IMG/VR virus record: IMGVR_UViG_3300025501_000001 | Origin: an uncultured virus (IMG/VR IMGVR_UViG_3300025501_000001) | Lineage: Duplodnaviria > Heunggongvirae > Uroviricota > Caudoviricetes | Direction: 5' to 3' (one strand) | Length of the DNA stretch: 64,000 nt | Part shown: positions 303 to 63,694 of the stretch, piece by piece | How positions within the stretch are numbered: position 1 is the stretch's first letter | How the letters are laid out: each line of letters opens with the position of its first letter | Position numbers and translations under genes: made by a program | The notes under the pieces: model-generated | Databases searched by the model: none | What the model saw: the letters and a program-made list of their open reading frames with translations, nothing else | Told to the model about the DNA's origin: nothing

Positions 303-411
303 GAGCAAGGGCAGCATGGAGCAAAGGACTGTTCAAGGTTCAAGGTTCGATGTTCAAGGTTCGGGAAAAAGGACGGTTTCAACGTTGAACATCGAACGTT
401 GAACTGCTCTC
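303..411 (+). repeat. Heptamer palindromic element (AGCA arm, GTTC arm, loop, GAAC arm)
   Basis: gttcaaggttcaaggttcgatgttcaagg...gttgaacatcgaacgttgaac, flanked by TGGAGGA at 294-300 and 412-418. Confidence 0.9.
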
Positions 412-421
412 TGGAGGAAAC

Positions 422-653
422 GATGGAAGACCTCATGCGGAAGGTAGACGAGTTGATAGCCGAGTGCAAAAGCGAAACTGAGGACCCTGAACCTTTAATC
501 CTTGGCGCCCTTCTCTGTCTTTTTAGGGGGGCATTCAAGAACGGGCAGCTCGACAGCCTCCTTCGCAAAATACAGATCACCGAATTGGCCCTGAAAATAG
601 AACTGCGTCTTGAGACCGCCCGCCGCGCCAGGGAAGCGGCAGGGAGAAACTGA
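422..653 (+). CDS. Hypothetical protein
   Basis: GGAGGA followed by ATG at 422. Confidence 0.55.
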
Positions 654-658
654 GAAAG

Positions 659-1048
659 ATGATAAGCCCTTTCGCCGGCCACCTCAATCCCCGCGTCTGC
701 CGTACCTGCCACGGCGAGATAGGCATGCTCGGGGTGCTCGGCTGCAAGTGCGCAGGCAACGTGCAGGCGGTCCTGGAACGGGAGAAGGCGGAAAAGCAAA
801 GGAAGGCTCACCGCGACTGGCGGAAGTCCCACCCGAGGGTGCCGAAGACCATCCCCTGCGGGAAGTGCGGAAAGCCGTTCGAGAAGCGCACCAGGAGCAA
901 CCTGTGCGCGCCGTGCAGGAAGGCCGGCGCGGCGGAGTACCTACGGGACTGGGCGACCAAGGCGTACCAGAAGAAGGTTGCGGCCGCGGGCAGGCAGTAC
1001 CGGCCCTACGGCCCCCGGAAGCAAAAGGAGGCAGAGCAAGCCGAATGA
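659..1048 (+). CDS. Hypothetical Cys-rich (Zn-finger) protein
   Basis: CxxC pairs; stop overlaps next ATG. Confidence 0.55.
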   Translation: MISPFAGHLNPRVCRTCHGEIGMLGVLGCKCAGNVQAVLEREKAEKQRKAHRDWRKSHPRVPKTIPCGKCGKPFEKRTRSNLCAPCRKAGAAEYLRDWATKAYQKKVAAAGRQYRPYGPRKQKEAEQAE

Positions 1049-1773
1049 AAACCACCGACGTAGATCAGGACGTTCTTTCCATTCTGGACCGCCAGGTCGA
1101 GATAGGCTGTGTTTCCGGGCACAACTTTGTAAAGCTCACCAGCGGTCAGCTCGATCGGAAAATGTACTTGAAGGTCGATGCGGTCCTGGAAGCGATAGGC
1201 GGCAGATGGGACCGCAAGGCGGCAGCGCACCTTTTTCCGGAAGATCCCGCTCCGCTCATCGAGAATGTTCTTCTCACCGGGACGGTTGCCCGGCCGTCCA
1301 AGAACGGCTATTTCCCGACGCCTAAGCACATCGTCATGAAGCTGATAGAACTGGCGGAAATAAAGCCCTTTATGCTTTGCCTGGAGCCCTCCGCCGGACA
1401 GGGGGCAATCTCAGACGTACTATACGCTATTATGCATTGCAATGTGCATATGGTAGAGCTGCTTCCCGCGAATAGGGAGATTTTGGTGAGGACACACTAT
1501 GGAGTGCTTATGGATGAGCCGGATTTTATGCAATTCAACCGGGACCGAGATCGGCTTTATGATCGCGTGGTAATGAACCCCCCATTCGAGAACCAACAGG
1601 ATATTGACCACGTGAGGCATGCCTTTGAGATGCTGCGACCCGGCGGCATCCTTGTCTCCGTTATGTCGAAGGGCATAACATTCCGGCAGAGGAAGAAGAC
1701 AAGAGGCCGCCCGCGGGACCGCGAAACACGCCTCGGAGGAGTGTCGACCCGAGGTTGTAAACGCCATGTATGA
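1045..1773 (+). CDS. N6-adenine DNA methyltransferase, C-terminus possibly truncated
   Basis: YFPTP, LEPSAGQG (motif I), MNPPF (motif IV). Confidence 0.85.
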   Translation: MKTTDVDQDVLSILDRQVEIGCVSGHNFVKLTSGQLDRKMYLKVDAVLEAIGGRWDRKAAAHLFPEDPAPLIENVLLTGTVARPSKNGYFPTPKHIVMKLIELAEIKPFMLCLEPSAGQGAISDVLYAIMHCNVHMVELLPANREILVRTHYGVLMDEPDFMQFNRDRDRLYDRVVMNPPFENQQDIDHVRHAFEMLRPGGILVSVMSKGITFRQRKKTRGRPRDRETRLGGVSTRGCKRHV

Positions 1774-2686
1774 CTACTGGCCAAAGGGCATCGTAAGCTG
1801 GTCCGTCGGCAAGGTCCAATACCTCTCTGTCGTTTTTACCTGGGACCTCCCGGAGGCGAAGGCTGTCGCCGAGGCCTCGAAGAAGAAGGTCGTCGCCGGC
1901 GGACCGGCCGTGGCGCTCATGGACGGATACCTCGCGGGGGTCGCGAAGATCGGCGAGGATCTGCCGTATCCCGTCCTGCCCTTTCACAACCCCGCCGCCG
2001 TCTTCACGTCGCGCGGCTGCCCTAACGCCTGCGAGTTCTGCGCCGTCCCGAGGACGGAAGGGCCTTTCAGGGAGCTGGCCGCCTGGGAGCCTAAGCCCCT
2101 CGTCTGCGACAACAATATCCTCGCATCGAGCAAGAGGCACTTCGGGAAGGTCATCGACAGCCTGAAACCGCTTCCCTTCGTCGACTTTAACCAGGGCCTC
2201 GACGCGCGTCTCTTCCGGCCCCGGCACGCATCGCGGCTCGCCGAGCTGAAAGCCGTCAAGGTGCGGTTCGCCTTCGACCATCGCGCCGGCGAAACGGTCC
2301 TCGTCGACGCCGTCCGCCTCGCGAGGAGCCGCGGCCTCAAGGACATAAGCGTCTACGTCCTTGTCGGCTATAAGGACACGCCGGCGGACGCCCGCGCACG
2401 GCTGGAGCTCGTCAAGTCGCTCGGCATCCGCCCCTGGCCCATGCGCTACAGGCCCCTCGATTGCCTCCACAAGAACGAGCACGTCCCCGAGGGATGGGAG
2501 AAAAAAGAGCTTCAGGACCTGGTGGCCTACAATTCGAGGCTGCAGTACATGGAGCATATCCCGTACGAACGCTACAGGCAGCTAAGACACGGCAGAAATC
2601 TGACCATTCGCCAGGGAGATTTTGTATGGGCCGATGAGGCCGGACGCTTGAAGAGTACGAGCATCGCCTTGGGAGAGACTGAATAA
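1766..2686 (+). CDS. Radical SAM protein
   Basis: TSRGCPNACEFC (CxxxCxxC), DNN, DFNQGLDARL. Confidence 0.85.
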   Translation: MYDYWPKGIVSWSVGKVQYLSVVFTWDLPEAKAVAEASKKKVVAGGPAVALMDGYLAGVAKIGEDLPYPVLPFHNPAAVFTSRGCPNACEFCAVPRTEGPFRELAAWEPKPLVCDNNILASSKRHFGKVIDSLKPLPFVDFNQGLDARLFRPRHASRLAELKAVKVRFAFDHRAGETVLVDAVRLARSRGLKDISVYVLVGYKDTPADARARLELVKSLGIRPWPMRYRPLDCLHKNEHVPEGWEKKELQDLVAYNSRLQYMEHIPYERYRQLRHGRNLTIRQGDFVWADEAGRLKSTSIALGETE

Positions 2687-2846
2687 TGATGGAGATCGCG
2701 GCCGGAGAAAATTTCGATGGATTTCGCGTTGCTTTTCGAAGGGGCTCACCGGAGCGTACTCTTTGTGTACGTGAGGACGTAGCCCCGAGGAAACGACGTG
2801 AAAGGCGCGAAATTAACCCGGCCGCACCCCGCGCGGGAGGCGCCCG

Positions 2847-5800
2847 TTGACCGACTACGAACAGATCAAGGAGCGCCTCGACATCGTGCAGGTCATCTGC
2901 GGCCAAACGGGCCTGAAGATGAAAAAGCACCATCTGGAGGAATGCCCCTTTTGCCATGGCCACGATTGCTTCAGCATCGACGCCGCGAAGGGCGTCTACA
3001 AGTGCTTCCAGTGCCCGGCCGAGGGCGATGTCTTCACGTTTCTGGAGGCGTACCACGGCACGGACAAGGCGGAGGCCCTGAAAATGGCGGCCGGGCTTGC
3101 CGGCGTCTCCCTCCCGGAGAGGCGCCCGCGCGAGCTGCGCCTGACCGCCAGGGAGCGCATTTTCCTCGAGGCGGCCGACTTCTATGCAAGCCGGGCGTTC
3201 GAGGACGGCGGCATGGATTACCTGGTGCGCGCCCGTGGCCACAAAGAAGACGTCCTGCGCCGCATGAGGGTCGGCTGGACGGGAGACGGGGGCCTCGTAG
3301 ACCACCTGCGGGCCAAGGGGTTCAGCGAGGGCGATATCAAGCTGTCCGGCCTGGCAAAGGAGCGGACCGACAACGGCATGCCCCACCTGGTCGATTTCTT
3401 CGTCAAGGGCCTGGCCGTCTTCCCGCATTTCGACGACGCCCGCGTGCTCCACTTCACCATCAAGGACCCCGCGAAGCGCTACAAGTACCAGCTCCCGAAC
3501 GAGGCGCGCCTGAAGGACTGGAGGTTCTACAACCAGGGCGCCCTTTCGAAGTTCAACGAGGTGATAGTCGTCGAGGGCGAAAACGACCTTTTGAGCGTGC
3601 TCGATTCCGGCGCCCAGCACGTCATCGGCCTGATAGGGCAGCCCGCCGAGTACCAGTTGAAGGCCCTGAAGGCGAAAGGCGCCGGCAAGCACCTTTACCT
3701 CTGGCTCGACAACGACGAGGGCGGCCGGGGCTTCGTCCGCAAGATCTGCACGGAGCTGAAGGACGCGAAATACAACGTGCGGGTCTTCGTCTATCCCACG
3801 GAGGCGAAAGACCCGGACTCCTATCTTCAGAACCACTTCGAGGGCGACCGCCGCCGCGAGATAAAGCGCCTCCAGGAAGGGGCCGTCGACTACCTCACGT
3901 GGGAAATATCGGAGATCCGCAGGGAGGAGACGCTCGAGGTACGACTAAAGGCACTGAAAGACCGGGGAATATTTCGCGCCGTGGCGGGCATGGTGGAAGC
4001 CGAGAAGCTCGTCTACACGGAAAAGATCGAGGCGCTGGGCTTCACGGAAAAGGCGATCGAGGAGCAGCTCGAGCTCGACCGCGAGCTCCTGATGGAACTG
4101 ACCCAGTACCAGGAAGGCCTCCAGAACAAGAAAGACGCGGACCCGAACCGCATCGTGGACATCATCTTCAAGCACCTAAATGCGGCCGGCCGCTTTTTCC
4201 GGGACCGCGAGGGCAAGGTCTACCTGCTCTACCAGCACCACATATACGATATCGGTAATAACAGGCCTTTCAACGCGCTCATGAAGCGGTCGACGCGCCT
4301 CCTGCCGACGAAGGAGCCTGGCCGGTCCGTCTGGGAGTCGCTTGCGAGCGAGGCGTACAACTCGGGCAAGCGGATAGACCTCGCCAGTTGGCTCTACACC
4401 GACCGGGGCACGGACACGATCTACATCAACCTCAATTCGGCCAATAACGTCATCCTGAAGATATCGAAGGGCCCTGCGATCGAGGAGATACCGAACGGCC
4501 TCAACGAAGAGGGCGTGTTGCTGCGGTCCTCCAGGAAGATCCTGCCGATGAACTACCTGCCCGACGCGGACGTCCGGGAGGGGATGCGGTACCTCAAGGA
4601 GTTGGTCTTCGACAACCTGACGTGCGAGAAAGAGCAGCGGTACCTGATCCTGTGCTGGCTCATGGCGGCGTTCCTGATCGACTTCGCGCCGTACCAGGCG
4701 AATATGAAATTTTCGGGAGCCACCGCCAGCGGTAAGACGACGGCGGCGAAGTTCCTGAGCCTGCTCATTTATGGGAAAGAGCACCTCGTAGACCCGACGG
4801 CTTCCGCCGCTTACTCGACGGCCAGCCAAAACCCCCTATTAATCATGGAGAACCTGGAGACCCAGGACTTAACGAAGAACAAGCAGCAGTTCCTACTGCA
4901 TAGCGCGACGAGGGGCGGCAAGGAGAAGAGGACTCAGGGGACGGAGACGGACACGACGGAAGAACAGCCCAAGTCGCTCGTTCTGATCACGGCCATCGAC
5001 CCATTGGAACGTGCCGAACTGATCAATCGGACCTATGACATCGAGTTCAGCGCCAAGTTTAAAACCGATGACTTTGTCGAGGACGAGGTCATCCGGGAGC
5101 TCGTGAAGAAGCGCGACCTTATCCTGTCCGCGATCCTGAAGTTCCTGCAGAAAAAGGTACTGGATCGTCTCGCGCGGCGCAAGGACTATATCACCGTGCT
5201 CAAGAAGGAATACCGGGGGCACGCGAAGGACCGCACCGACGAGTTCCTGGCGCTCCTGATGCTGATGGTGGAACGCCTGGTGAGGCATATTCCCTATTAC
5301 GGCGAGGACCATCCCTATTACGGGATGGAGGACGAGTACGGATGGGGCGACGGCGAGATCCGGAAGGCCTGGATAGAGTACCAGAACGCCAAGGCCAGGG
5401 ACACGGAGATCTCGAGCAACAACATCATCAAGATGCTCGACGGCCTGGTGAGGGAATATCTCCAGAAGGCGGCAGGCGACAGGGCCAAGGACGGCGGAGG
5501 CGCGGGCGACTACGGAGCGGGCCCCGGAAGCGTGATCGAGCCGACCTACCCGATCATCCTCTACCACTCCGATTACGGCCTCGAGCTGGAGAAGAGCAAG
5601 CCGGAGGTCCAGGCGGACGAGGCCAACGGCGAATCGTATGTGAGGACGTACATCGAGTTTACCGCGAGCCCCGGCGAGATAGTGGCCGCCTTCGACCGCT
5701 TCTGCAAGAACAACGGCCTGCGGAACCCTTACGGGACCGCGAGCGTCTTCGGGGAGCGCCTCAAGAACGACAGGAACCACCTGGCCCAGGGGGGCTGGGA

Positions 5801-5888
5801 GATAGTGAGCAAGCCGAGTGTCGAGCCGTATTACAAGGTGGTAAAAGGCGTGCGGTTCTGGAAGTTCAAGAAGACGCTGGTGAGGTAA
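2847..5888 (+). CDS. Primase-helicase (CHC2 zinc finger, TOPRIM, P-loop NTPase, C-terminal winged-helix-like region)
   Basis: CPFCHGHD..CFQC, VVEGEND, WLDNDEGG, KDPD, GATASGKT. Confidence 0.9.
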   Translation: MTDYEQIKERLDIVQVICGQTGLKMKKHHLEECPFCHGHDCFSIDAAKGVYKCFQCPAEGDVFTFLEAYHGTDKAEALKMAAGLAGVSLPERRPRELRLTARERIFLEAADFYASRAFEDGGMDYLVRARGHKEDVLRRMRVGWTGDGGLVDHLRAKGFSEGDIKLSGLAKERTDNGMPHLVDFFVKGLAVFPHFDDARVLHFTIKDPAKRYKYQLPNEARLKDWRFYNQGALSKFNEVIVVEGENDLLSVLDSGAQHVIGLIGQPAEYQLKALKAKGAGKHLYLWLDNDEGGRGFVRKICTELKDAKYNVRVFVYPTEAKDPDSYLQNHFEGDRRREIKRLQEGAVDYLTWEISEIRREETLEVRLKALKDRGIFRAVAGMVEAEKLVYTEKIEALGFTEKAIEEQLELDRELLMELTQYQEGLQNKKDADPNRIVDIIFKHLNAAGRFFRDREGKVYLLYQHHIYDIGNNRPFNALMKRSTRLLPTKEPGRSVWESLASEAYNSGKRIDLASWLYTDRGTDTIYINLNSANNVILKISKGPAIEEIPNGLNEEGVLLRSSRKILPMNYLPDADVREGMRYLKELVFDNLTCEKEQRYLILCWLMAAFLIDFAPYQANMKFSGATASGKTTAAKFLSLLIYGKEHLVDPTASAAYSTASQNPLLIMENLETQDLTKNKQQFLLHSATRGGKEKRTQGTETDTTEEQPKSLVLITAIDPLERAELINRTYDIEFSAKFKTDDFVEDEVIRELVKKRDLILSAILKFLQKKVLDRLARRKDYITVLKKEYRGHAKDRTDEFLALLMLMVERLVRHIPYYGEDHPYYGMEDEYGWGDGEIRKAWIEYQNAKARDTEISSNNIIKMLDGLVREYLQKAAGDRAKDGGGAGDYGAGPGSVIEPTYPIILYHSDYGLELEKSKPEVQADEANGESYVRTYIEFTASPGEIVAAFDRFCKNNGLRNPYGTASVFGERLKNDRNHLAQGGWEIVSKPSVEPYYKVVKGVRFWKFKKTLVR

Positions 5889-5902
5889 GGAGGGGGGTAA
5901 CG

Positions 5903-6292
5903 ATGGGAATGTTTGACCGCCTTACTTGCAGATATCCGTTGCCGGTGAAAGGTGCAAACGATCTGATCTATGCGACAAAGGACACCCCGGCCCAATATCT
6001 CGATAATTACGAGATCAGAGAAGACGGAAGCCTCTGGCATCAGGAATATGACATAGAAGACCATAGCGACCCGAAGGCCAAGGGAATTATGGCCCTGGCA
6101 GGGTGCATGACAAAGGTGGCCAGGGGGTGGGTGCCCGAGTTAATGACGGGAGAAATCGTGTTTTACCACCTTATCGGAGACAAGGGATGGATAGAGTTTT
6201 CCGCATATTTCGAGGCGGGCAAAATAGTCAGGCTGAATCTACTGGAACATGTCCCGGAAACAGAACCGGCAGGGAAGGCTGGTGGCTCTTAA
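5903..6292 (+). CDS. Hypothetical phage protein
   Basis: Strong SD upstream; MGMFDRLTC start. Confidence 0.65.
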   Translation: MGMFDRLTCRYPLPVKGANDLIYATKDTPAQYLDNYEIREDGSLWHQEYDIEDHSDPKAKGIMALAGCMTKVARGWVPELMTGEIVFYHLIGDKGWIEFSAYFEAGKIVRLNLLEHVPETEPAGKAGGS

Positions 6293-6521
6293 GGGGCGAG
6301 AGGGTAATACGAAAACCATCAAACTCAACGGCGGTCTTGTAGTGTCAAAAGAACGGCTTCTCAAATTCCACGACCGGCACGGCCTAGCCACAATCACTAA
6401 GGATGGCCGCATTGTCGTGTGGTTGCCAAGGTCCCGGAGGGGGCGAGACGTTGAAATAGGCAGAATAGTACAACTGTGAGCGCATGACAGGGCAGAGCAA
6501 CTTCATATAAGGAGGTCAATC

Positions 6522-6755
6522 ATGAAGCGTGCGATGGCCGAAAAGATTGCGAAGGCAATTGGTGGCAGAGCGATCAACACCCATGAGTATCAGGAGATAT
6601 ACATCGTCCTTGCTGATGACGACCATGGCTATCATACCATCATCAGCAGCGTTTTGGTTTCTGGAAAAGACCGATCTACAGAATGGGAAAGATTATACAA
6701 TGCCGCCGAAGAACTAAATGCGAAGAAGAAAGAACCGGCTGAGGCCAAAAAGTGA
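6522..6755 (+). CDS. Hypothetical protein
   Basis: AAGGAGGT SD and ATG. Confidence 0.65.
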   Translation: MKRAMAEKIAKAIGGRAINTHEYQEIYIVLADDDHGYHTIISSVLVSGKDRSTEWERLYNAAEELNAKKKEPAEAKK

Positions 6756-7038
6756 TCGCGCAGGAGGGTCCATGATTGCGAGCATAATGTTCATTACGCC
6801 CAAAGGGAAGAGTTCTCAGTATATCCAGGAGATCATTGCCGTTCCTGATGTGGGGGAACAAGTAAAGCTCGACGGCGGGGTCATACCAGGCGCTGGGGGT
6901 GGGCATTACGTCGTAGCGGAAAGGCGCTGGGCGTTTACGCGGGAGTTTGATCGTGTAGCGACGCACCTCACCCTCGATCTCGCCTACAGAGAGACGGCGT
7001 ATGATGTCGCAGGTACCAAAAAGTGATCGCGCAGGAGG
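6745..7038 (+). repeat. 23-bp perfect direct repeats flanking one gene
   Basis: CCAAAAAGTGATCGCGCAGGAGG at 6745-6767 and 7016-7038. Confidence 0.9.
6772..7026 (+). CDS. Hypothetical protein
   Basis: AGGAGG SD and ATG 6772. Confidence 0.6.
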   Translation: MIASIMFITPKGKSSQYIQEIIAVPDVGEQVKLDGGVIPGAGGGHYVVAERRWAFTREFDRVATHLTLDLAYRETAYDVAGTKK

Positions 7039-7118
7039 CCCGTAGAGCCGTTTTTTCGAGGGGGCACGACCTGTAACCCTCGCGATTACCGCAGTTTTGG
7101 GAGAGAGCAGGAGAGCGT

Positions 7119-7535
7119 GTGTTATTGCCTTTCGGTGATGTGATCAGGACACACGACGGCGATCCGGAGCTCCGTCAGCTCGCCGATCGCCATTACTCCC
7201 GGAAGTCGCCGGGGGCCTTGCTCTTTGTCGGTCCGGGCTTCAAGATCGTCCTTCGGAACCCCGAGGGGACCTGGGTCTTTGCCTGGCGAAACGCCGCGAA
7301 AAGAGAGGACGGGCAGACGGGCTGGGAATGCTCTATCTTCCACAATGAGTCTGGGCTGCTATCCTCCGGTATTATACTGGCCTGTGAGGAGCACGTGGAG
7401 GGGCGCAAGTTCACCTATATCGATCCCAAGAAGGTGAAGTCAACCAACCCGGGCTATTGTTTTCTCTGTGCCGGCTGGAAGCACGCAGGTAGAAGCAAGG
7501 ACAGAAACCTGGTATTGCTGGTGAAAGATGAGTAG
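7119..7535 (+). CDS. Phage protein, possibly Mom-like (GNAT) DNA-modification enzyme
   Basis: RHYS and TYIDP...NPGYCFLCAGW resemble Mom-like motifs. Confidence 0.45.
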   Translation: MLLPFGDVIRTHDGDPELRQLADRHYSRKSPGALLFVGPGFKIVLRNPEGTWVFAWRNAAKREDGQTGWECSIFHNESGLLSSGIILACEEHVEGRKFTYIDPKKVKSTNPGYCFLCAGWKHAGRSKDRNLVLLVKDE

Positions 7536-7889
7536 TTCAGCCATCCTTCGACCCACTAAAGGAATCCCTGAAAATCGGTCAAGACCGATTTTCGCGCCTG
7601 CGGCCTATAAACGATTAGGGCGAGAAAAGCCCGCGATAGAGGGTCGAGCGCCGCTCCTGGCCGCCGGCCGGTCCCTCGATCGTTTTGTCTTGGCTCCGAC
7701 CTTGCCGGGTTCGAGCTCCAGCTCCAGCCTCATTATCGTCATGGGTGTCCTCATGGCCCGCCTCGGGGTGCAACGGTCCTTCGGGGAGCGGGGCCTCTCC
7801 CCCACAAATGTGTGCGCTTTCGCTCACTTTTTAAATTTTGTTAGCTTTTTACCCGTCAGGAAAAAGTTTTTGACAATCTTTCCAAAAGC

Positions 7890-8080
7890 GTTGCACCAGT
7901 GCACCCCAGAGACCTTTTTCTTAATGTTTTCAATGTTATTAGTGGGGTGCAGCGCGGGGTGCACTGGGGTGCAACGGGGTGCAACGGTGGTGCAACGGGC
8001 GGGGGTTTTTGAGCGTTGCACCCCGTGTTTTATCAAGCGCCTATCTATCTTTTTTAGCGATTGGTGCAAGGGTGCAACGG
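7890..8080. promoter_or_regulatory. Iteron-like cluster, candidate replication origin
   Basis: About ten GGTGCA/TGCACC copies in both orientations beside T-rich tracts, downstream of the primase operon. Confidence 0.6.
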
Positions 8081-8637
8081 TTTTGATGTCCTCAAATATT
8101 TCCCGAGGGTGACAGGGGAGGGATCAGGATGGCGCTTCGGTTGGTCAGCCGCAAAAAAAAGTTCTTGTTTTCTGTTAGTTTTCTAACCTTTTGTTTTACC
8201 TTTTCTTATAGGTGTGTCATGGGGTTAGTTGTCTCTGTGCTCGGCCTCTATTGGAGGGAGGTAGTCACGTGGTGTCCAGAACGGACGGAAGGACGGAATG
8301 GGGGATCTGGCTGTACTGCACATAATGATAAATTGTGCGGTAGGGGTGGTATATGGGTACCTGTTATCAAGGCTTTCTGTTTCTCTCTTGTTTGCAATAG
8401 TGCGGTATGGTTTGGACCAGGATGTTTTTCTCGGTCCCCGAGGCGGCCTCCCCCCCATCGAAAACTTCCCGATCCCTGCCTTCCCCCTCCCCCATTACCA
8501 TCTTTATATTGTAGACAATGGGAAAACCTTTTTTCAGGTGGGATACGGGGCCTTACTCGTGTTCTCGGCGGTTCCAGCCTCGCCACGTCTTTAGCTTGCG
8601 GCCTTGCCTTTAAGGGGGGTCCGGGGGGGGTTCCCGC

Positions 8638-9940: not shown

Positions 9941-9977
9941 TACGTGTTAAATTGTAAGTAAAAAAAAGGGGAAAACT

Positions 9978-49218: not shown

Positions 49219-49220
49219 CA

Positions 49221-54264: not shown

Positions 54265-54278
54265 TTTGTCGCCCCCCT

Positions 54279-54381: not shown

Positions 54382-54393
54382 CCCGGAGGAACG

Positions 54394-55005: not shown

Positions 55006-55164
55006 TGTTCAGGGTTCAGGGAGGTTCAAGGTTCAGGGTTCAAGGTTCAGGGTTCAAGGTTGAGGAAAGAGAGGAATTTAACATTGAACATTGAACATAG
55101 AACCTTGAACGCCCCCAAAGGGGGCCACGTTGAACATTGAACCTCGAACCTTGAACATTGAACA
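55005..55164 (+). repeat. Heptamer element between the coupled ATG (55002) and the NlpC body
   Basis: GTTC/GAAC arms. Confidence 0.9.
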
Positions 55165-55765: not shown

Positions 55766-58700
55766 AGATCATAGTCGTCAAGAACCCCCTCAAGCCGACC
55801 GATCGCGCGAGCCGCTACGAGGACGTGATAGAGCTCGACCGGCCCGCCATGACCCTTGCCGACTTCATGACGGACCTTTTTCACAACGTCGAGACTGAAT
55901 TCCTGGCCTCCGTCAACGGGCGCCCGCCGGTGCCCATGGAGAAGCGCGGCGACGTTTGGGTGAAGGCGGCCGATGAGCTGACCTTCGTCCCGGTCCTCGC
56001 GGGGGGCGGGGGCGACGGGAGCGGCAAGGAGGTCCTCAGGGCGATATCGATGCTTGCCATCGCCCTCGGGGCGTGGTACCTGGCGCCGTACCTGGTGGGG
56101 GCACAGGTCGGCGGTGAAGCTGCGTTCGGCTCCGCGGGCTGGGGTGCAATCTCCGGGTCCACGGCCTTCGCCGCGTCTGCCGTCGCCGCAGGGATCTCCA
56201 TAGTCGGCGGCATGCTTGTCAACGCCCTCCTTCCCCCGCCCACGAAGGACAACTCCAACGCCACCCCCTCCGTCTACACCTGGGGCGCCCCGCCCAACAC
56301 GCAGCAGCAGGGTCTGCCCATTCAATGGGTCTTCGGTACCCTGCGCTACGGCGGCAACATCGTCATGGCCTACCTGGGCCTGGACCCCTGGGGCGAAAAC
56401 CAGCGCTTCAACGTGATCGACTGCTTCGGGGAGGGACCGATAGCGGCCGTCTCGGACATCGAGATAAACGGCCAGCCCATCTCCACCATCGGCGCCTTCG
56501 ATACGGGCGGCAACTTCGTCGGGCTGAACGTGGGCGTGCGCCTGGGATATCTCAACCAGCCCTGCCTCGATTTCGAGGCCACGACCGTCTCCGAGAACCA
56601 GCAGAACATACCGATCACGCACGCGGCCGGTCCCGTCATTTTTACCACCGAAGACAACCAGTTCGTGGGGATCGTCGTTACCCTCACCTGGCCCCAGGGC
56701 TGCTATGCCATCGACAATAGCGACGGCTCGGTCATAGCCGGCGAGGCGGACTACGAGGTGGACTACGCCCCTGTCGGCTCGTCCGACTGGGTATCCGCCA
56801 CGGCCACGCCCGTCTCCACGATCGTTGCCAATTATCGATGGAGCCTTGGCCAGTGGACGGACTTTTCATGTGGTGCTGATAATCCTCAGGGTTGGGTAGA
56901 GGCTGCTGCCGGCTCGTCGAACGGTGCCGACCACTATGAAGGGGAACCCTCCGCTAACCCCTGGGTGGATGGAAACTGGTGGCATTGGTGTTGGGGCGAC
57001 ACCGTGGTGAACGGCGTGGTCCCCTACGCCCGGGCGGTCTGGGCCACCACCCAGGGCTTCTCCATCACTGTTGGTTTCAACGTCCCCGCCCCCAATTACT
57101 ACCAGGTGAGGGTCAGCCGGACAAGCCCCGATGATTCCGGCTATGGCCAGATGACGGCCTTTGTCTGGACCGATGTCCAGCTCAATTACGCGGACGGCTT
57201 CACCCGCCCCGGCCGGGCGCTCCTGGGCCTGAGGGGCCTCACATCGGCCCTTTCCTCCGGCTTCTCGGTCACCGCCCTCGTTAAGGGCAAGCTCGTCCAG
57301 GTCTGGAACGGCTCGGCCTTCGTCACGCAGTATTCCGCCAATAACGCCTGGGTCGCCTTCTTCATCCTGACCCAGCCTATATTCAACGACGATCTGACGG
57401 TCAACAGGTACCGCCTCAGAGACCGCTCGAGCCTTCCTATAGATTCCTGGTACGCCTTCGCCCAATGGTGCGACGACCAGGTCGATAACGGCGCCGGGGG
57501 GCTGCGCCCGCGCTACGAGTACGACGGCGTCATAGACACGCGCCAGTCCTCGTGGGAATGGGCCCTTGCGGTTTGCCAGGAGGCCCAGGGCACGCTTTAT
57601 TATGACGGCCTCGATATCAAGGTCGTCATCGACCAGCCCAAAACCCCCTGCAAGACCTACACCGTCGGCAGCACGACAAAATCGAGCTTCAAGGGGAGTT
57701 TCCTCGCCATAGACCAACGCGCGGGCCAGATCGACTGGCGCTTCCTCAACAGGAACAAGAACTACCAAATGGATACCTTTACGGTCAGGGACGAGACCCT
57801 CGCCCTCAACACGGACAACAAGGTCACCCTCACCCTGAAAGGCACTACGGACCCCGCCCAGGCCGCGGCCTACGGCAATTACCGCCTGCGGTGCAACAAT
57901 TACCTCATCCAGTCGGGGGAGATGGGCCTCGACGTGGAGGCCCTCGTCAATACGCCCGGGGACGTGATCAATATCCAGACGGACATCTCCCAATGGGGAT
58001 ACGGCGGCAGGCTCCTTGCGGCGGACGCGACCCACGTCACCCTCGACCGCACGGTGAATATGCTTCCCGGCGTCTCTTATGAAATTCAGGTCCAGGTCTG
58101 GGACGGCACGCTCGTCACCATGGCCGTTGTCAATAACCCCGGCAGCCAGACCGTCCTTACCATTGCCGGCGCCTTCGTCACGGTCCCCCACGGCATGGAG
58201 ACGGACCCCGAGGGCAACGGCGACGTGTACACCTTCGGTCCCGCAGGCATGAGCGCCAAGCCCTTCATCATCACGGCGATAAAGCCCGGCCAGGAGAACC
58301 GCCGCACGGTCAGCCTCGTCGAATACGTGCCGGACGTATATACCCTGAAGACGATCACGCCCATCAACTATTCGGCCCTGCCGGTGGGCGTCCCATCGGT
58401 CACGAACCTCGCTGCGGTGGAGCGTTTCTCAGGGAGCCCCCAGGGGGCTACTCCAACGATAGGCATTACCTTCGACATACCATCTTCGCGCACCTGGGAT
58501 CACGCGGAGATCTGGTGGCGCAGCAACAAGCAGCCCACCTGGCAGGACGCCGGGTCGACGCGCACCGGTTCCTTCAGCCTCATGAGCATGGTCGTTGGCG
58601 CGACCTATAACATAGCGGTCGTATCCGCGACTGTGAACCAGACCCAACCCTTCTCTGCAGCGCCCCAGGTGTCGATCTATATGGCGCCGCCATTGCCCCC

Positions 58701-59733
58701 CCCGAACGTCACGAACTTCGGCGTGAGCCAGAACGGGAGCATGGTCGTCGCCTCATGGGACGTTTTGGTCGGTTTTAACGTCGCGTCCTACGAGATTCGG
58801 TACAATCCTCGGGGCGACGCTACCTGGGCGGATGGGACGACTGTCACAACGGCCGAGGCGGGTTCGCACCTGGTGAGCGCCAAGGTCGGGCCGGGTGCGT
58901 GGACGTTTATGATCTGCGCCCGGGATATCTGGGGGAATTATAGCGCGATTCCCGCAGCCTGCGACCTTATCATAACCAATCCCAATGTCCTCATGGCCGG
59001 TGGCACGAGCGAAGCGGCGAAGGGATGGCCCGGCCTGTACGCGGATCTCGGGATAGGGGCGCAGTTCGAGCCCGGCACACAGCTTGAGGCGGGGAGCCAG
59101 CTTGAGGGTTTAGTTCCTTTAACCTACGGCTTCGTCCTGCACCCGACAGGCGTCCTGATCCCCAAATCTCAGGGGCTTGCGGTAAATGCCGGATGGGATG
59201 CTTTCAACCTTGCGGCCAACCCAGTCCCATTGTGTGTCTATACGACCCTGGAGTTAGACCTGCCGTTCGATGTCCTCTGCCGCGCCCACGGAGAGATATC
59301 GTCCGCCCTTGTTCCGGGGGCCACTGGAAGCGCCAACCCCCAGCTCCAGATCGAAACAAAGCTCTCGGGGGGTTCATACAAGGGCTTCATCCCTTGGGGC
59401 GTGGGGGACGTGACCTGTCAGGCGGCACTCATGCAGATCGTTTTGGACACCTCGAAGGGCGTGGCCTACATCAAGGATTTTACGCCGACCCTGGATGCGG
59501 AGTTAAGGACGATCCCCTTCATCAATCAAGCGATAGCCATCGGGGGAACCGCCATAACCTATGGCACGCCATTCGTGCTGATGCCCAATGTCCAGGCGAC
59601 CCCCACAGGGTCGGGGTCGGTCCTCGCCGTGATATCGAATGAAACGGAAAGCGGCTGTACCGTCACACTCTACAACCCGGCAACCGGCGCTTCCGTGGCC
59701 GGAAACGCTAACATTACGATCGAAGGAGTTTAA
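55753..59733 (+). CDS. Host-specificity/central fibre protein (lambda gpJ-like, with gpI-like N-terminus)
   Basis: GEGPI, NNAWV, WCDDQV, PGDVI; FN3-like domains. Confidence 0.9.
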   Translation: MAEVKIIVVKNPLKPTDRASRYEDVIELDRPAMTLADFMTDLFHNVETEFLASVNGRPPVPMEKRGDVWVKAADELTFVPVLAGGGGDGSGKEVLRAISMLAIALGAWYLAPYLVGAQVGGEAAFGSAGWGAISGSTAFAASAVAAGISIVGGMLVNALLPPPTKDNSNATPSVYTWGAPPNTQQQGLPIQWVFGTLRYGGNIVMAYLGLDPWGENQRFNVIDCFGEGPIAAVSDIEINGQPISTIGAFDTGGNFVGLNVGVRLGYLNQPCLDFEATTVSENQQNIPITHAAGPVIFTTEDNQFVGIVVTLTWPQGCYAIDNSDGSVIAGEADYEVDYAPVGSSDWVSATATPVSTIVANYRWSLGQWTDFSCGADNPQGWVEAAAGSSNGADHYEGEPSANPWVDGNWWHWCWGDTVVNGVVPYARAVWATTQGFSITVGFNVPAPNYYQVRVSRTSPDDSGYGQMTAFVWTDVQLNYADGFTRPGRALLGLRGLTSALSSGFSVTALVKGKLVQVWNGSAFVTQYSANNAWVAFFILTQPIFNDDLTVNRYRLRDRSSLPIDSWYAFAQWCDDQVDNGAGGLRPRYEYDGVIDTRQSSWEWALAVCQEAQGTLYYDGLDIKVVIDQPKTPCKTYTVGSTTKSSFKGSFLAIDQRAGQIDWRFLNRNKNYQMDTFTVRDETLALNTDNKVTLTLKGTTDPAQAAAYGNYRLRCNNYLIQSGEMGLDVEALVNTPGDVINIQTDISQWGYGGRLLAADATHVTLDRTVNMLPGVSYEIQVQVWDGTLVTMAVVNNPGSQTVLTIAGAFVTVPHGMETDPEGNGDVYTFGPAGMSAKPFIITAIKPGQENRRTVSLVEYVPDVYTLKTITPINYSALPVGVPSVTNLAAVERFSGSPQGATPTIGITFDIPSSRTWDHAEIWWRSNKQPTWQDAGSTRTGSFSLMSMVVGATYNIAVVSATVNQTQPFSAAPQVSIYMAPPLPPPNVTNFGVSQNGSMVVASWDVLVGFNVASYEIRYNPRGDATWADGTTVTTAEAGSHLVSAKVGPGAWTFMICARDIWGNYSAIPAACDLIITNPNVLMAGGTSEAAKGWPGLYADLGIGAQFEPGTQLEAGSQLEGLVPLTYGFVLHPTGVLIPKSQGLAVNAGWDAFNLAANPVPLCVYTTLELDLPFDVLCRAHGEISSALVPGATGSANPQLQIETKLSGGSYKGFIPWGVGDVTCQAALMQIVLDTSKGVAYIKDFTPTLDAELRTIPFINQAIAIGGTAITYGTPFVLMPNVQATPTGSGSVLAVISNETESGCTVTLYNPATGASVAGNANITIEGV

Positions 59734-59735: not shown

Positions 59736-61061
59736 ATGAAGATGTTCAAAGTTCAAGGTTCAAAGTTCAAAGTTCAAAGTTCAAGGTTGGGGAAAGAGAG
59801 CTCTATGCTCCATGCTCTATGCTCTATGCTTTTGTTGCTGCTTTTGCTCTCTGCTGCTCTTCCGGGAACCGCCGATGCGCGCGAGATATACTACCGGGCG
59901 GCCGCCACGGGCAACACCTCCAATTCCATGGACAACATAAGCACCACGACCCCCGGTGGTGATGGTCACCTTCTGGCGGACGGGGATGTCTGTAACATTC
60001 TTAACGGTCAGTTATACGTATACCTGATGGTTGCGGCCTCCGGTGCTACGCCCGATCCCCCTTACGTCGTAGAACCAGCCACATCACCCGGAAACATGCG
60101 GTGGATATGGCAGCTTCCGGCTGGGATTACCTACCCCGCTGCGGGGGTGGCCGTCAGCCCCGGCACAGGCGGTCCTTGGAGTGCGTCGCTCACGGTGGGC
60201 ATTGCGGCGAATAACCTCGTGCAGCTGGATGCCTATAACAGGCTCCCGGCCGTAAGCGGGGCCAACCTCACCGGCCTCAACTTCCAGGCAGCGTACAGCA
60301 TCCTCTCTACACTCGGCAACCTCGCTAACGGCGCGGGCTGGCTTTACAACAACGGATCGGGCGGCCTGTCATATTCGACGCCCAGCAGCGTTGCCTATGC
60401 AACCTCGGCGGGATCAGCCAGCTCTGCTTCATATGCAACCTCCACAGGCTCGGCAGGCTCGCTTAACGCCGCCTCCGCCCTCCCAAACGGGACCACGGCA
60501 ACAACCCCATGCTTTGGTCAGTCCGGTGCCCCATGTTATAACGGCGTCGATTTCTCAACTAAGATTGCAACAACATACTGGGTACAGCAGTGGACAGCGG
60601 CAACTTATCAAGCTCTAGGCGGCGGCGACGGAGACTATGCGGACTACCAACCCCTGGCAAAATCCGCAAACCAGGTGCCGAACATAGTTTATGGCAAAGT
60701 CTACTGCGATACCGACCAGGGCGCGCAAATCTGCACAAGCAGGGCGCAAATAGCCGTCATGGGGATAGCTTCGGACATCCACGGACAGGTCGTGGGGCTG
60801 GACCGGAAAGAAGGGGGTGTCCCTCTCGCGGTCGCGGGATGGGTGTTGGCTTACTGTGACCGGCAATATCCCATCGGAACGGTATTAACCAATGATGCGT
60901 CCGGCAATCTGACCGTGATGACCGACGCGGAGAAGGCGGCATATCCCGAAAGGATCGTCGCAACGTATCAAAGACCGGAGCCCCTGCAATATTCGTCAGT
61001 CAGGAACAAAGAGGGGGTCCACGTCCTGGTCGATGGACGAGCCTGGGTCAGGGTGAAATGA
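59736..61061 (+). CDS. Tail fibre-like protein; in-frame element at 59741-59860
   Basis: LVQLDAYNRLPAVSGANLT; GDYADY precedes a possible chaperone domain. Confidence 0.7.
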   Translation: MKMFKVQGSKFKVQSSRLGKESSMLHALCSMLLLLLLLSAALPGTADAREIYYRAAATGNTSNSMDNISTTTPGGDGHLLADGDVCNILNGQLYVYLMVAASGATPDPPYVVEPATSPGNMRWIWQLPAGITYPAAGVAVSPGTGGPWSASLTVGIAANNLVQLDAYNRLPAVSGANLTGLNFQAAYSILSTLGNLANGAGWLYNNGSGGLSYSTPSSVAYATSAGSASSASYATSTGSAGSLNAASALPNGTTATTPCFGQSGAPCYNGVDFSTKIATTYWVQQWTAATYQALGGGDGDYADYQPLAKSANQVPNIVYGKVYCDTDQGAQICTSRAQIAVMGIASDIHGQVVGLDRKEGGVPLAVAGWVLAYCDRQYPIGTVLTNDASGNLTVMTDAEKAAYPERIVATYQRPEPLQYSSVRNKEGVHVLVDGRAWVRVK

Positions 61062-61067: not shown

Positions 61068-61180
61068 ATGTTCAAGGTTCAAGGTTCGAGGTTGCCCCTT
61101 TGGGGCGTTCAAGGTTCTATGTTCAATGTTCAAGGTTGAAATCCTCTCTTTCCCCAACCTTGAACCTTGAACCTTGAACA
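61068..61180 (-). repeat. Heptamer element in inverted orientation
   Basis: Pyrimidine loop cctctctttcccc and gttctat/gttcaat variants on the + strand. Confidence 0.85.
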
Positions 61181-61191: not shown

Positions 61192-62277
61192 ATGAGCGTA
61201 GCGCAATACATCCAAAACGACTGCACCAAAATGTCTCCGGGAGCGGAGTATATGGCGGCCCTCGACGGCAACACGCAGGTTCTGGCCCAGATCGGCCGGG
61301 CCTTCGCGCCGCATCAGAACAGCCCGGCAGCGATGAATATTCAAGTCGATGCGGGGAGCCTCATCAATACTGCAACGGGGGCAGTCGTCAGCCAGGCGGT
61401 GCAGACATCGGGGACGATCACGGCACCATCGTCGCATCCGAGGATCGATCTCGCCGTGGTCAATGCGATTACAGGAGTCCTCTCAGTCGTCACAGGCACG
61501 GAGGCATCAAGCCCCGTGGCCCCTGCATGCCCGGTGGGTTCGATCCCCCTGGCGCAAATCGCCCTTGCCGTGGGGCAGACAAGCATCGTTAATACCAACC
61601 TGACGGACGTCCGGACCTTCCTCGCCGTCCCTCCGCCTTTCGCGCGGACCCGCCAGGTCTTCGGGAGCGGCAACGGCACATACACGGCGCCTGCCGGGGT
61701 CAAATACATCGTCGTCAGGATGATAGGCGGTGGGGGCGGCGGCGCAGGAAGCGGATCGGCGGGAGCCGGAAACGGAGGAACAGGTGGAAATACTACCTTT
61801 GGCACAACCCTTTTAGCCGCTAATGGGGGGAGCGGGGCGAATTCGGGCGGACCCGGCCATGGGGGAGCGGGCGGCTCGGCTTCCCTGGGAAGTGGGCCAA
61901 CAGGAATAGCATTGACTGGCGGGTATGGTTGCCCTGCGGTAATAACTATTAATTCCACCTCTGTTTCTGGCGGAAACGGTGCATCCACTCCTTTCGGGGG
62001 TTCGGGAGGGGGCGGGGGCTTTACGGCGAATGGGATTGCTGGAGTGTCCAATACAGGTGCTGGAGGAGGAGGAGGGGGAACGGGGAATGACAGCGCTGTG
62101 ATTTCCGGCGGTGGTGGGGGTGCAGGTGGCTTCATTGACGCCCTAATTACAGCACCAGCCGCCAGCTATTCTTATGCGGTCGGAGCAGCCGGGTCTGCGG
62201 GTTCAGCGGGCACAGCAGGAAATGCGGGCGGCGCAGGCGGATCGGGCATCATCATAGTGGATGAGTTCTACAACTGA
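61192..62277 (+). CDS. Glycine-rich tail fibre protein
   Basis: PRIDL; YTAPAGVKYIVVRMIGGGGGG; GGSGIIIVDE. Confidence 0.8.
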   Translation: MSVAQYIQNDCTKMSPGAEYMAALDGNTQVLAQIGRAFAPHQNSPAAMNIQVDAGSLINTATGAVVSQAVQTSGTITAPSSHPRIDLAVVNAITGVLSVVTGTEASSPVAPACPVGSIPLAQIALAVGQTSIVNTNLTDVRTFLAVPPPFARTRQVFGSGNGTYTAPAGVKYIVVRMIGGGGGGAGSGSAGAGNGGTGGNTTFGTTLLAANGGSGANSGGPGHGGAGGSASLGSGPTGIALTGGYGCPAVITINSTSVSGGNGASTPFGGSGGGGGFTANGIAGVSNTGAGGGGGGTGNDSAVISGGGGGAGGFIDALITAPAASYSYAVGAAGSAGSAGTAGNAGGAGGSGIIIVDEFYN

Positions 62278-62887
62278 AAGGGGATTTTCGGATATGAACG
62301 TAGAACCAGCGGGACCCATAATCGGGGAAATCGATGGGGGCGGAAACCCAGGCGATCCGGCCTTCCGCTTTCCGGACCGTCGCCTCTATCATTCCGAGAT
62401 TGCGGCATACGCCACCGCCCTGCTGGTGCTCAAGGCTTTCATTGTAGGCATCGTCGGTGACGCCATTGGGGTGGTCGGCAAATTGAAGCGCGAAAAGGCC
62501 GCCCTTCTTGAGGGAGCGAAGCACATGGCGAATCTGCCTTTCAAGGTCGGCATTGCTCATGTGCTGTGTGACAAGGTGGGAAATTGCAAGGTCAAAGCGG
62601 CCCGCAGGAAGGTCGGCAGGGTCGAGCCACCCCCGTTTGATCGATCCTTTTACCCTTTCCAAGGCTGCGCGTGTGATGTCCAGGGCGTAGACTCTGCATC
62701 CTATCTTTCTCAACTGCCGAACGTCCTCGCCGCCTCCAACGCCGATCTCCAAAATGCGTTTCCACCGGTGCACCCGATCTACAATATTCATGGCCTCCCA
62801 GAGAGAAGGGCCGCCGTAGTTGGAAACAAAGAAAGAGCCCGGCGTGTTGTGGCAGATCTCCCACCACTGTTCAATTGTCTGCACCAA
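62252..62887 (-). CDS. Class I SAM-dependent methyltransferase
   Basis: ILEIGVGGG, ALDI, LVTQH, LKKGG. Confidence 0.8.
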   Translation of the reverse strand: MVQTIEQWWEICHNTPGSFFVSNYGGPSLWEAMNIVDRVHRWKRILEIGVGGGEDVRQLRKIGCRVYALDITRAALERVKGSIKRGWLDPADLPAGRFDLAISHLVTQHMSNADLERQIRHVLRSLKKGGLFALQFADHPNGVTDDAYNESLEHQQGGGVCRNLGMIEATVRKAEGRIAWVSAPIDFPDYGSRWFYVHIRKSPFSCRTHPL

Positions 62888-63053
62888 TCCATTCTACCAT
62901 CGCATGGGGCGATGTCAAGATTGAGGCGATACGATGAGAAGGAAATAAGGACGCGCGGCCAGGCGGTGTGGATGCCGCTTTCGGGAACTACCCTAATGCC
63001 GCTCTTACAGAATGGAACGCCCGAGTAACAAAAAGTCAAGGAGATAAAACTTT

Positions 63054-63302
63054 TTAGCGCGGCAACTGGATGAAGCCTGCGCCGCCCTTCCATCGGGGCT
63101 CCTCTTTTGCGGGCTCCGGCTCGGTCTGCTCGGCCATTGGGGCGATCCGGCCGCCGATCCTCCGGAGCTCCTCGAGCATCGCCCTTTGAGTTTCGATCAG
63201 GACATTGACCTTCCAGTACCAGAGCATCACCGATCGCAGGACGAGGAAAATAAGCAGGGCTATCAAAAAGGTCAGGACCAGGTCACTAAGCATCGCCTTC
63301 AC
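63054..63302 (-). CDS. Small membrane protein
   Basis: LIFLVLRSVMLWYWKVN. Confidence 0.65.
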   Translation of the reverse strand: MKAMLSDLVLTFLIALLIFLVLRSVMLWYWKVNVLIETQRAMLEELRRIGGRIAPMAEQTEPEPAKEEPRWKGGAGFIQLPR

Positions 63303-63425
63303 CCCCTTTAACTCAACGACCCGCGTAGCGGGTGCCCCGAAACTTAAAACTCAACACTGTCTTTCTTCGTTATGTACTCCAATGCGCGATGAAATGCAAC
63401 AATATTCTGCGGCAATGCCGGAGGG

Positions 63426-63694
63426 GCAGAGAGCAGGGAGCAGGGAGCAGAGAACAGCAGAGAGCATGGAGCCCGCGCCTGCGGCGCTCCGGAGGATAGA
63501 GATGTTCAAGGTTCAAGGTTCGAAGTTCGAAGTTTTAAAAAGGCGGGGTTTTAACCTTGAACTTTGAACCCTGAACCTTGAACATCTCTGAACCCTGAAC
63601 CTTGAACATCCCTCATCCCTGAACCCTGAATCTTGAACTTTGAACATCCCTATAGTAAAATGAACCTTGAACTTTGAACATTGAACCTTGAACA
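63426..63694 (+). repeat. Heptamer element with expanded right arms
   Basis: AGCA arm, GTTC arm, many (c/t)tgaac units. Confidence 0.9.

Follow-up and report, generated by a model that had tools for sequence, protein, structure and literature searches.

Modular heptamer palindromes in the late genes of an uncultured temperate phage and their possible relation to PF05635 cassettes

Repetitive extragenic palindromic (REP) sequences and bacterial interspersed mosaic elements (BIMEs) act as stabilisers of mRNA, Rickettsia palindromic elements are selfish repeats tolerated in frame within essential protein genes, the short tandemly repeated repetitive (STRR) sequences of heterocystous cyanobacteria are heptamer tandem repeats, and phage T7 carries a few conserved, functional RNase III processing hairpins between genes. 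The present report sets beside these a family of palindromic elements, built from arrays of 7-nt units, in a 64,000-nt stretch of DNA (hereafter the window) from an uncultured virus of the Caudoviricetes (IMG/VR IMGVR_UViG_3300025501_000001).

Heptamer repeats of the word TAACTGA are found in Beggiatoaceae, Cyanobacteria and Bacteroidetes as 169 direct sets and one indirect set (PMC4679880), and this was the closest description that the literature searches returned. Long stems around PF05635-type open reading frames (ORFs), formed by intervening sequences (IVSs) of 23S rRNA, are cut by RNase III (PMC4990558), and PF05635 is considered homologous to Avd of diversity-generating retroelements (DGRs) (PMC10053308). 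Full-text literature searches, with subscription-only papers outside their scope, returned no description of heptamer-armed PF05635 cassettes or of phage elements of the present kind. On balance, the roughly 29 loci in the window appear to be non-autonomous relatives of the PF05635 cassette, similar to miniature inverted-repeat transposable elements (MITEs), that were acquired in trans and kept where translation survives.

Anatomy and distribution of the elements

Units are written here as A for AGCANNN, F for GTTCNNN, f for NNNGAAC and a for NNNTGCT, with a digit for the unit number, and arrays within 130 nt of one another were merged into clusters. The three-unit GTTCNNN pattern (GTTCNNNGTTCNNNGTTC) matches 130 times on both strands against 0.02 expected from shuffles, and the AGCANNN pattern (AGCANNNAGCANNNAGCA) 29 times against 0.00. 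About 30 modular heptamer palindromes had been reported in the initial annotation of this DNA, and 29 clusters are confirmed, totalling 3,919 nt or 6.1% of the window, with a GC content of 0.47 against 0.58 for the window. Two blocks, 13.6-37.8 kb and 53.5-63.7 kb, contain all of these but one. When period-7 arrays with three or more units are counted, 62 fall in 13.6-37.8 kb and 23 in 53.5-64 kb, with none in 405-13,600 or 37,800-53,500, in agreement with the element-free intervals first described (0.4-13.6 and 37.8-53.5 kb); the background is zero arrays across 28.9 kb of element-free window DNA.

The modules are separable. GTTC-only hairpins, AGCA-only hairpins with a TTTAAA-type tip (17317-17416, 31706-31815, 54290-54373), nested AGCA(GTTC)TGCT composites, double hairpins whose two right arms are separated by a GC clamp, and one-armed copies (59744-59855, 19821-19915) all occur. 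The single nested order proposed at the outset is therefore that of composites (18360-18474, 32350-32498, 28564-28731) and not of GTTC-only, AGCA-only or one-armed copies, and the copy at 61070-61179 is flipped. All 29 clusters fold into at least one imperfect hairpin, with free energies of -14 to -113 kcal/mol, and eight RNA folds (seven elements, one of them on both strands) gave z-scores of -2.3 to -7.2 against shuffles.

Several details recur from copy to copy. Twenty-two GTTC arms begin with ATGTTC; 18 loops finish in TTYAAC directly before the GAAC arm, as the early description of loops ending in TTTAAC or TTCAAC had it; and eleven exact GC clamps of two kinds follow GAAC arms (GCCCCGAAGGGGC six times, GCCCCCAAAGGGGGC five times). 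With each arm read on its own strand, the spacers are AAG, AAA and AGG on the left and AAT, GAT, TAT, AAC and AAG on the right. The irregular string GAACATTGAACATAGAACCTTGAAC recurs exactly six times in the window and the loop GRGGAAAGAGAGGAATTT is present four times, and this exact recurrence suggests copying from shared templates and not growth in place.

Adenine-specific mutation between the arms, of the DGR kind, was considered and rejected: the positions that change are the first A and the spacer base facing G, and the middle A is invariant. In Rfam, no family reached its gathering threshold in the window and no rRNA was found, an E-value search giving sub-threshold matches only. One of these, to the Acido-Lenti-1 RNA at 25454-25491 (- strand), coincides with a GC clamp (24.4 bits, gathering threshold 37, E = 0.09); it is probably a chance match, which would at best hint faintly at an Acidobacteriota setting.

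Insertions, reading frames and the link to PF05635

The ORF at 13800/13845-15935 has no match in Pfam or PHROGs and is taken to be TerL from its size, its place before the portal gene and the relatives retrieved with it. Alignment with element-free orthologues, proposed in the initial annotation as a check, showed that copies are absent from TerL, from the portal and from the TerL/portal junction of relatives. Of 13 aligned relatives, seven lack TerL residues 275-348 and six have unrelated fillers at the same point, some of which are arrays of other 7-nt words. The portal segment of ~46 amino acids that includes element 17672-17745 is missing in all nine aligned relatives, and at the portal linker of element 17317-17416 the relatives bear repeat-derived peptides of their own. 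Three related loci (L264, L270, L272) have nothing but an ATGA overlap at the TerL/portal junction, and in four (L250, L262, L258, L273) the junction is filled by arrays of the locus's own word. Among 29 TerL-related loci, 13 have period-7 arrays, mostly of other words (such words include GAAATTA, ACGAATT, CGATTCA, CACAGGG and AAATCCG), and 16 have none. As read from these alignments, the copies are secondary insertions in the phage.

Turnover is apparent from phage G006, whose hydrolase gene is 91% identical to that of the window at the amino acid level (tblastx of the two was mostly noise, and the hydrolase match and one match of ~150 nt were used). Upstream of this gene G006 has a GTTC hairpin in opposite orientation and the window an AGCA-only hairpin; downstream, G006 has the outer AGCA/TGCT arms in common but lacks the inner GTTC hairpin. 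The pace of module turnover thus exceeds that of divergence in the adjacent gene. Other viral and metagenome contigs also contain the element family of the window, its loop, asymmetric arms and clamp included. A complete composite lies at 1501-1652 of the 154.6-kb metagenome contig L383, which could be host chromosome or a large phage, with AGCA arrays, eight GTTC units, loop GGAAAAGAGGGGGTTTTAAC and a mismatched right arm. A direct-repeat variant of the same word is seen in the viral contig L043 (4,430 bp), in which five one-armed GTTCNNN arrays of 8-14 units have no inverted partner and mixed spacers (TAG, AAG, GAA, TAA, GAG).

At ~15 junctions the element starts 2-20 nt past the upstream stop codon and the ribosome-binding site of the next gene follows the right arm, and 7 of ~17 junctions retain the ATGA stop/start overlap where the element begins on its left side. 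Placement at gene junctions, as originally proposed, accordingly describes many copies but not those several that lie in frame inside genes, at least three of them inside TerL and portal. A frame from an ATG continues through the element into the gene in ORFs 28058-28549, 28546-31347 and 59736-61061, the last from an ATG two bases past the stop at 59733; elsewhere such a frame ends in the right arm. The last CTTGAAC word of element 15946-16074 supplies the TTG start of the portal gene (16048).

As 7 and 3 are coprime, each frame of a uniform array reads the same seven codons, so that a GTTCAAG array is stop-free in every frame; the CTTGAAC array, read likewise from the sequence, contains TGA. 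The 18 clearly intergenic clusters have no open + frame. Intragenic clusters have one or two, including the gene's own, the frame being kept by ATC spacers, by the use of AGCA/TGCT modules only, or by having no GAAC arm (59744-59855). This argument is circular for ORFs without homologues, but not for TerL and portal, where there is homology on both sides. Two further observations concern translation. TGCT-type arrays in frame yield Leu/Cys/Ser-rich hydrophobic stretches (28175-28230, 13800-13845, 28770-28800), of which MLLLLLLALCPALAG stands at the possible start of ORF 28058/28175-28549; these resemble signal peptides, and the repeats may be creating N-terminal hydrophobic segments. The conserved purine-rich loop (GAGAGGATGAG) holds a Shine-Dalgarno-like tract and an ATG, and at 24508-24521 and 19915-19929 the following gene seems to start within it (24518, 19926).

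The words of the phage elements are also found in bacteria. GTTCAAG hairpins occur in contigs of many phyla and AGCATGG arrays are likewise widespread. In five metagenome-assembled genomes (MAGs), labelled Acidobacteriota, a four-unit GTTC pattern was matched 67-370 times and its reversed control 2-20 times. PF05635 was matched in all five of these GTTCAAG-hairpin MAGs, 4-13 times each, against one of 14 control genomes. Fifteen of 20 fetched PF05635 loci have one word upstream and its reverse complement downstream, with a word of its own at each locus; three have a single array and two have none, and GTTCAAG or GTTCAGG words were present in three of the 20. Arms of GTTCAAG or GTTCAGG surround PF05635 in L290, L295, L296 and the metagenome contigs L215 and L245. 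AGCATGG arms do so in four contigs (L393, L375, L365, L387) among 80 flanked metagenome loci, the family being confirmed there by Pfam (E 1e-22 to 1e-25). In the GTTCAAG cassettes the TGA stop of the gene is supplied by the right arm.

It was also found by BLASTP that the four AGCATGG-armed proteins are each other's top three matches (47-56% identity) and that three GTTCAAG-armed proteins are each other's top two (48-64%); within the same genome, PF05635 proteins whose arms have other words show 37-53% identity to each other. At the level of sequence comparison, PF05635 proteins group by arm word. One pair of GTTCAAG arms in a MAG, at 594-1090 of L311 (G007:C61:2800-4500), encloses ~400 nt of a 21-nt periodic repeat and no gene; L312 was considered as another case of arm-enclosed cargo and rejected, as it holds two separate hairpins around an ordinary gene.

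PF05635 was absent from all nine array-bearing phage records, including G006, four that cover window positions 5-64000 and beyond, and one that is 98% complete. The provirus record G417, retrieved with a PF05635 query and not for arrays, has one PF05635 match, and a single PF05635 protein used as query gave one distant viral match. A Y1/HUH transposase (PF01797) was found in none of five phage records against 6 of 14 control genomes, although the host may have a REP-associated tyrosine transposase (RAYT); reverse transcriptase (RT) was likewise found in none of the five. The initial statement that the window holds no transposase or RT stands, although a tyrosine recombinase is present at 8638-9639.

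The element can be summarised as a modular gene-less palindrome in which an inner GTTCAAG-type hairpin, an outer AGCATGG-type hairpin and GC clamps are combined in varying numbers, with terminal inverted repeats, no transposase and many copies, as in MITEs. The same kind of repeat forms the inverted arms around small PF05635 genes in uncultured bacteria, where its gene-less copies number in the hundreds. As the phage records lack PF05635, Y1 transposase and RT, the copies would have been acquired in trans, probably while the phage was resident in a host with cognate cassettes, for which lysogeny is a plausible occasion. Survivors would then remain only where translation is intact, either behind a stop codon or ATGA overlap or in frame and stop-free within inter-domain linkers, and in-frame copies would do so by using stop-free spacers or by dropping the TGA-bearing CTTGAAC arm. 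We infer that the copies were mobilised in trans, that they came from a host and that selection brought about their placement; the first, already among the early suggestions, is partly supported by the insertions relative to orthologues, by the absence of the three gene types from the phage records and by the occurrence of the words as arms of PF05635 cassettes elsewhere.

A more speculative and rather doubtful extension is that the 7-nt word is an address read by its cognate Avd-like PF05635 protein which, with a host polymerase, RT or nuclease, would copy gene-less hairpins into new sites, resident prophages included. The two-word nested elements of the phage would then be footprints of, or decoys against, two host systems, and the heptamer hairpins of many phyla, STRR sequences included, would descend as non-autonomous offspring from a single class of mobile element, guided by protein and as yet undescribed.

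Evidence against acquisition in trans, and alternative explanations

Several findings weigh against acquisition of PF05635-related copies in trans. The restriction to two blocks is left without explanation: 28 clusters fall among ~33 genes and one among a further ~33 (Fisher p = 4e-12, with gene tallies from a crude ORF call). The right arms in the phage are systematically mismatched, unlike those of bacterial copies, and the two arms are not equivalent, the third spacer base being G74/A20/T4 in the + strand arms and T51/G34/C14/A8 in the other (chi-square p = 6e-16). The purine-rich loop lies on the sense (+) strand in 20 of the 21 hairpins with a loop longer than 12 nt. This asymmetry and orientation bias could reflect selection for a phage function and not passive carriage. 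The grouping of proteins by word was built on loci fetched by word, and common descent would give both traits in any case. The AGCATGG word was not found in the five GTTCAAG-rich MAGs, no host was found, and a sample of 401 genomes from one phylum gave no exact match to the AGCA/GTTC composite junction, three of them having a single 1-mismatch match. G412 has a phage-type element on one contig only. No clean target-site duplication was definable at the TerL/portal junctions or in the comparison with G006; the ATGA(GA) that flanks the fillers of L250 and L262 at either end is a hint of a target site and no more. Presence/absence polymorphism was not seen within the phage, contigs of different samples being 100% identical.

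The alternative that survives best, although it seems unlikely, is that the hairpins are phage-selected RNA signals in long late transcripts, acting in RNase III processing, as 3'-end stabilisers that set the ratios of structural proteins, or as barriers or relays in translational coupling, and perhaps co-opted from mobile DNA. It would account for the shared orientation of the long-loop hairpins, for the ~15 placements strictly between a stop codon and the next ribosome-binding site, for confinement to the packaging/head and tail blocks and for the stable folds, and the cutting of IVS stems by RNase III lends it a precedent. Mini-ORFs also bridge an upstream stop to a downstream start at 15932-16051, 18351-18491 and 13696-13845, three examples that are not relied on. 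RNA signals are harder to reconcile with in-frame copies in TerL and portal, where cleavage would destroy the mRNA, with different modules at both flanks of the 91%-identical hydrolase gene in two phages, and with the half of related phages that have no elements. The flipped copy and the periodic mismatches without compensation are further difficulties, and terminator-like sites are not in excess in 13.5-33.4 kb (19 against 21.3 expected), with none on the + (sense) strand within an element; the elements are not intrinsic (Rho-independent) terminators. Because of the two element-free blocks, the asymmetric arms and the orientation bias, a phage-level RNA function nevertheless stays alive as a rival to acquisition in trans or as an addition to it.

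Growth of the arrays on the spot is improbable. In that case a 7-nt seed at a fragile junction would grow symmetrically through replication slippage and hairpin-templated copying, with neither transposition nor any protein belonging to the arrays. Unit number does differ among copies, related phages have the same hot spots (TerL, portal and their junction) but each with words of its own, and the portal start TTGAAC resembles the word, so that microhomology is possible. Local growth would not, however, yield the identical irregular multi-word strings, loops and GC clamps shared by many copies and by other phages, nor words in common with distant PF05635 cassettes whose proteins group by word, and unit number is not hypervariable, since contigs of several samples are identical across the elements.

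A similarly low probability is given to the arrays as putative protein-binding sites, either for a host PF05635-type protein, with the phage copies as decoys or sponges, or for a phage protein that condenses or packages DNA. The grouping of PF05635 proteins by arm word and the predominance of arms of 3-5 units would suit such binding, as would homology to Avd, which binds nucleic acid and the RT. In-frame copies and turnover between close relatives would be unexpected for packaging signals, and the element-free half of the genome would stay unbound.

An assembly or chimera artefact of repeat-rich metagenome reads, suggested by short-read unitigs that break at every element and by false joints between copies, can hardly be entertained when independent IMG/VR contigs of several samples run through the elements with 100% identity, Logan contigs of four runs match unique stretches with no differences, 20 runs contain at least 95% of sampled words, and the TerL and portal frames continue correctly across the elements. 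Joints between copies in the contigs of the four runs, which break at the elements, are cross-mappings, the joint 19907->20268 carrying the loop of the element at 34316, and they speak neither for excision nor against it.

If acquisition in trans is correct, palindromic selfish DNA can saturate a phage genome, terminase and portal included, without a transposase of its own. Tandem heptamers, an unexplained class of bacterial repeat, are tied to the PF05635 family of Avd relatives, and both are open to work in vitro. The shared words are a possible marker for linking uncultured phages to their hosts, and the in-frame copies form a natural insertion set that maps permissive linkers of phage structural proteins.

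The phage in context and comparison with known systems

Nearly all long ORFs of the window are on the + strand, and genes named from Pfam and PHROGs are listed with the element copies in Table 1. A public contig identical to the window end runs on into an integrase and a repressor on the opposite strand, so that the phage is temperate; it is siphovirus-like. Two tyrosine recombinases are thereby present, one in the window at 8638-9639 and one beside the repressor beyond its end (L305 7872-9005, - strand). Deposited phages gave no DNA match to the window and the protease-like protein has distant matches only, and near-identical sequence is present in 20 soil, peat and wetland metagenome runs of 2014-2020.

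Table 1. Genes and element copies in the window, with units coded as in the text
Feature	Position	Strand	Remarks
Primase	2847-5888		Pfam/PHROGs
Tyrosine recombinase	8638-9639		Pfam/PHROGs; early region
Mor-family activator	11328-12482		Pfam/PHROGs
Mu-type portal fused to MuF-like part	16048-18354		Pfam/PHROGs
Cement protein	22588-23346		Pfam/PHROGs
Cell-wall hydrolase	31831-32337		Pfam/PHROGs
SNF2 helicase	39835-41250		Pfam/PHROGs
Tape-measure protein	50794-53496		Pfam/PHROGs
Tail proteins, L-like and J-like	54394-59733		Pfam/PHROGs
A2 F5 f3	313-404	+	inside ORF 3-653, whose frame is the sole open one; DUF1643 match upstream in same ORF
A2 A2 f4 a2 a4, GC clamp CGCCGCAGGCG	13638-13818	+	between stop at 13622 and TerL
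F2 F5 f4	14649-14754	+	in frame in TerL; core of ~74-aa insertion, residues 275-348
Double hairpin F4 f2 F3 f4	15946-16074	+	TerL/portal junction
AGCA-only hairpin A3 A3 A2 a4	17317-17416	+	in frame, hypervariable portal linker
F2 f4 a4	17672-17745	+	in frame in portal; part of ~46-aa segment
Full nested A3 A2 F4 f3 a3	18360-18474	+	portal stop (18354) to ATG 18493; z -5.5
Two left arms F5 F5, no right arm nearby	19821-19915	+	first overlaps end of ORF 18493-19857
109-aa ORF	19926-20255	+	bracketed by arms 19821-19915 and 20274-20383; ATG in loop-like sequence
Right arms f4 f4 f3, GC clamp after each, then loop-like tract and f4	20274-20522	+	
A2 A3 F5 f4	23351-23474	+	after stop 23346; z -5.3
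F5 f4	24476-24559	+	straddles ATGA stop/start overlap 24518-24521, in loop
F2 F4 f4, then clamp GCCCCGAAGGGGC	25356-25453	+	
A3 F4 f4	26501-26630	+	after stop 26492
F4 f4	26827-26907	+	z -2.8
F4 f2 f4	27405-27510	+	after stop 27401; ATGA overlap kept at left edge
F4 f4 a3	28076-28179	+	in frame behind ATG 28058 of ORF 28058-28549
Nested double hairpin F5 F4 f4 clamp f4	28564-28731	+	in frame behind ATG 28546, 933-aa ORF
AGCA-only hairpin, clamp CGCCAAAGGCG	31706-31815	+	upstream of hydrolase gene
Nested A2 F3 f3 a4 a2	32350-32498	+	downstream of hydrolase gene
Nested double hairpin F4 F3 f4 clamp f4	34254-34408	+	
Composite A5 A4 A2 F2 f3 clamp f4	35104-35403	+	
Composite A2 F2 F4 f4 clamp f4 clamp f4	36712-36918	+	
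Solitary AGCA/GAGC-type array	37729-37754	+	last before element-free block
F4 F4 f4, then four GC clamps to ~53710	53516-53626	+	after tape-measure stop 53496
AGCA-only hairpin A3 A4 a3	54290-54373	+	one open frame, that of ORF 53724-54683
Nested F2 F5 f4 clamp f5	55007-55163	+	directly after stop 55005
F5 f4 clamp f4	55367-55492	+	a frame open, inside ORF 55109-55765
F6 a4 a2, without GAAC arm and hence stop-free	59744-59855	+	in frame behind ATG 59736
Sole clearly flipped copy	61070-61179	-	loop pyrimidine-rich on + strand
Composite A3 A2 clamp F4 f4 f3 f2 f5	63432-63693	+	end of tail genes

The ORF at 19926-20255 was considered as the element's own gene and rejected, as it has no family and no relatives: it is not PF05635, has no Pfam match, has itself as its sole database match, and gave weak M78-like leads in Atlas, below the bar. 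The element-free block at 37800-53500 holds the SNF2 helicase, a PAPS-reductase/DUF3440 protein, a ParB-like ORF and a PDZ protein, and extends through the tape-measure gene. The sharp edges of the element-rich blocks may be a trace of mosaic ancestry. A direct repeat of ~164 nt (79% identity) at ~27825-27988 (ORF 27537-28061) and 45624-45787 (ORF 45372-45863) may represent paralogous small genes, one in each block type, element-rich and element-free.

REP/BIME, STRR and Rickettsia palindromic elements, first named as analogues of these palindromes, serve well as functional comparisons, but the window elements are not placed in any of them. Rickettsia palindromic elements likewise lie in frame in genes, and differ in sequence family and host and in having no 7-nt arrays. 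The T7 hairpins share a position between cistrons of long transcripts, from which the window copies differ in being many, modular, variable among close relatives and also intragenic. STRR words belong to heterocystous cyanobacteria, and the present carrier is an uncultured phage of 58% GC from peat and wetland metagenomes. A conserved REP palindrome consensus of ~20-40 nt is not apparent.

Borg tandem repeats are likewise fast-evolving and also in frame, where they add disordered protein segments, but they are direct repeats without hairpins (PMC9879509). With the TAACTGA heptamers (PMC4679880), and with STRR, the likeness lies in the 7-nt units, the intergenic arrays of two to many, a word common to unrelated phyla and the lack of a known mechanism. 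Those repeats are mainly direct and upstream of start codons, whereas the arrays in the window are inverted, nested, phage-borne and linked to PF05635. REP/BIME sequences and the REP doublets forming hairpins (REPINs) associated with RAYT are also short, multi-copy intergenic palindromes, non-autonomous, with a single-copy gene-bearing partner elsewhere and a possible role in stabilising mRNA (PMC3116915). The arms in the window, in contrast, are degenerate tandem heptamers of variable unit number, the phage records have no Y1/RAYT gene, and the associated gene is PF05635 and not an HUH nuclease.

The 23S rRNA IVSs with an S23p/PF05635 ORF, as in Coxiella burnetii and Leptospira, differ in that the window copies have no PF05635 ORF and lie in a phage, outside rRNA and its helices 25 and 45. 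The stems also differ, being arrays of 7-nt words in the window and a 28-bp stem in the IVS, for which heptamer arrays are not described in the available passages (PMC4990558). The two resemble each other in their long stem of inverted terminal sequences and in their sporadic, apparently horizontal distribution (PMC4990558), and in the gene-bearing relatives described above the loop is occupied by a gene of that protein family.

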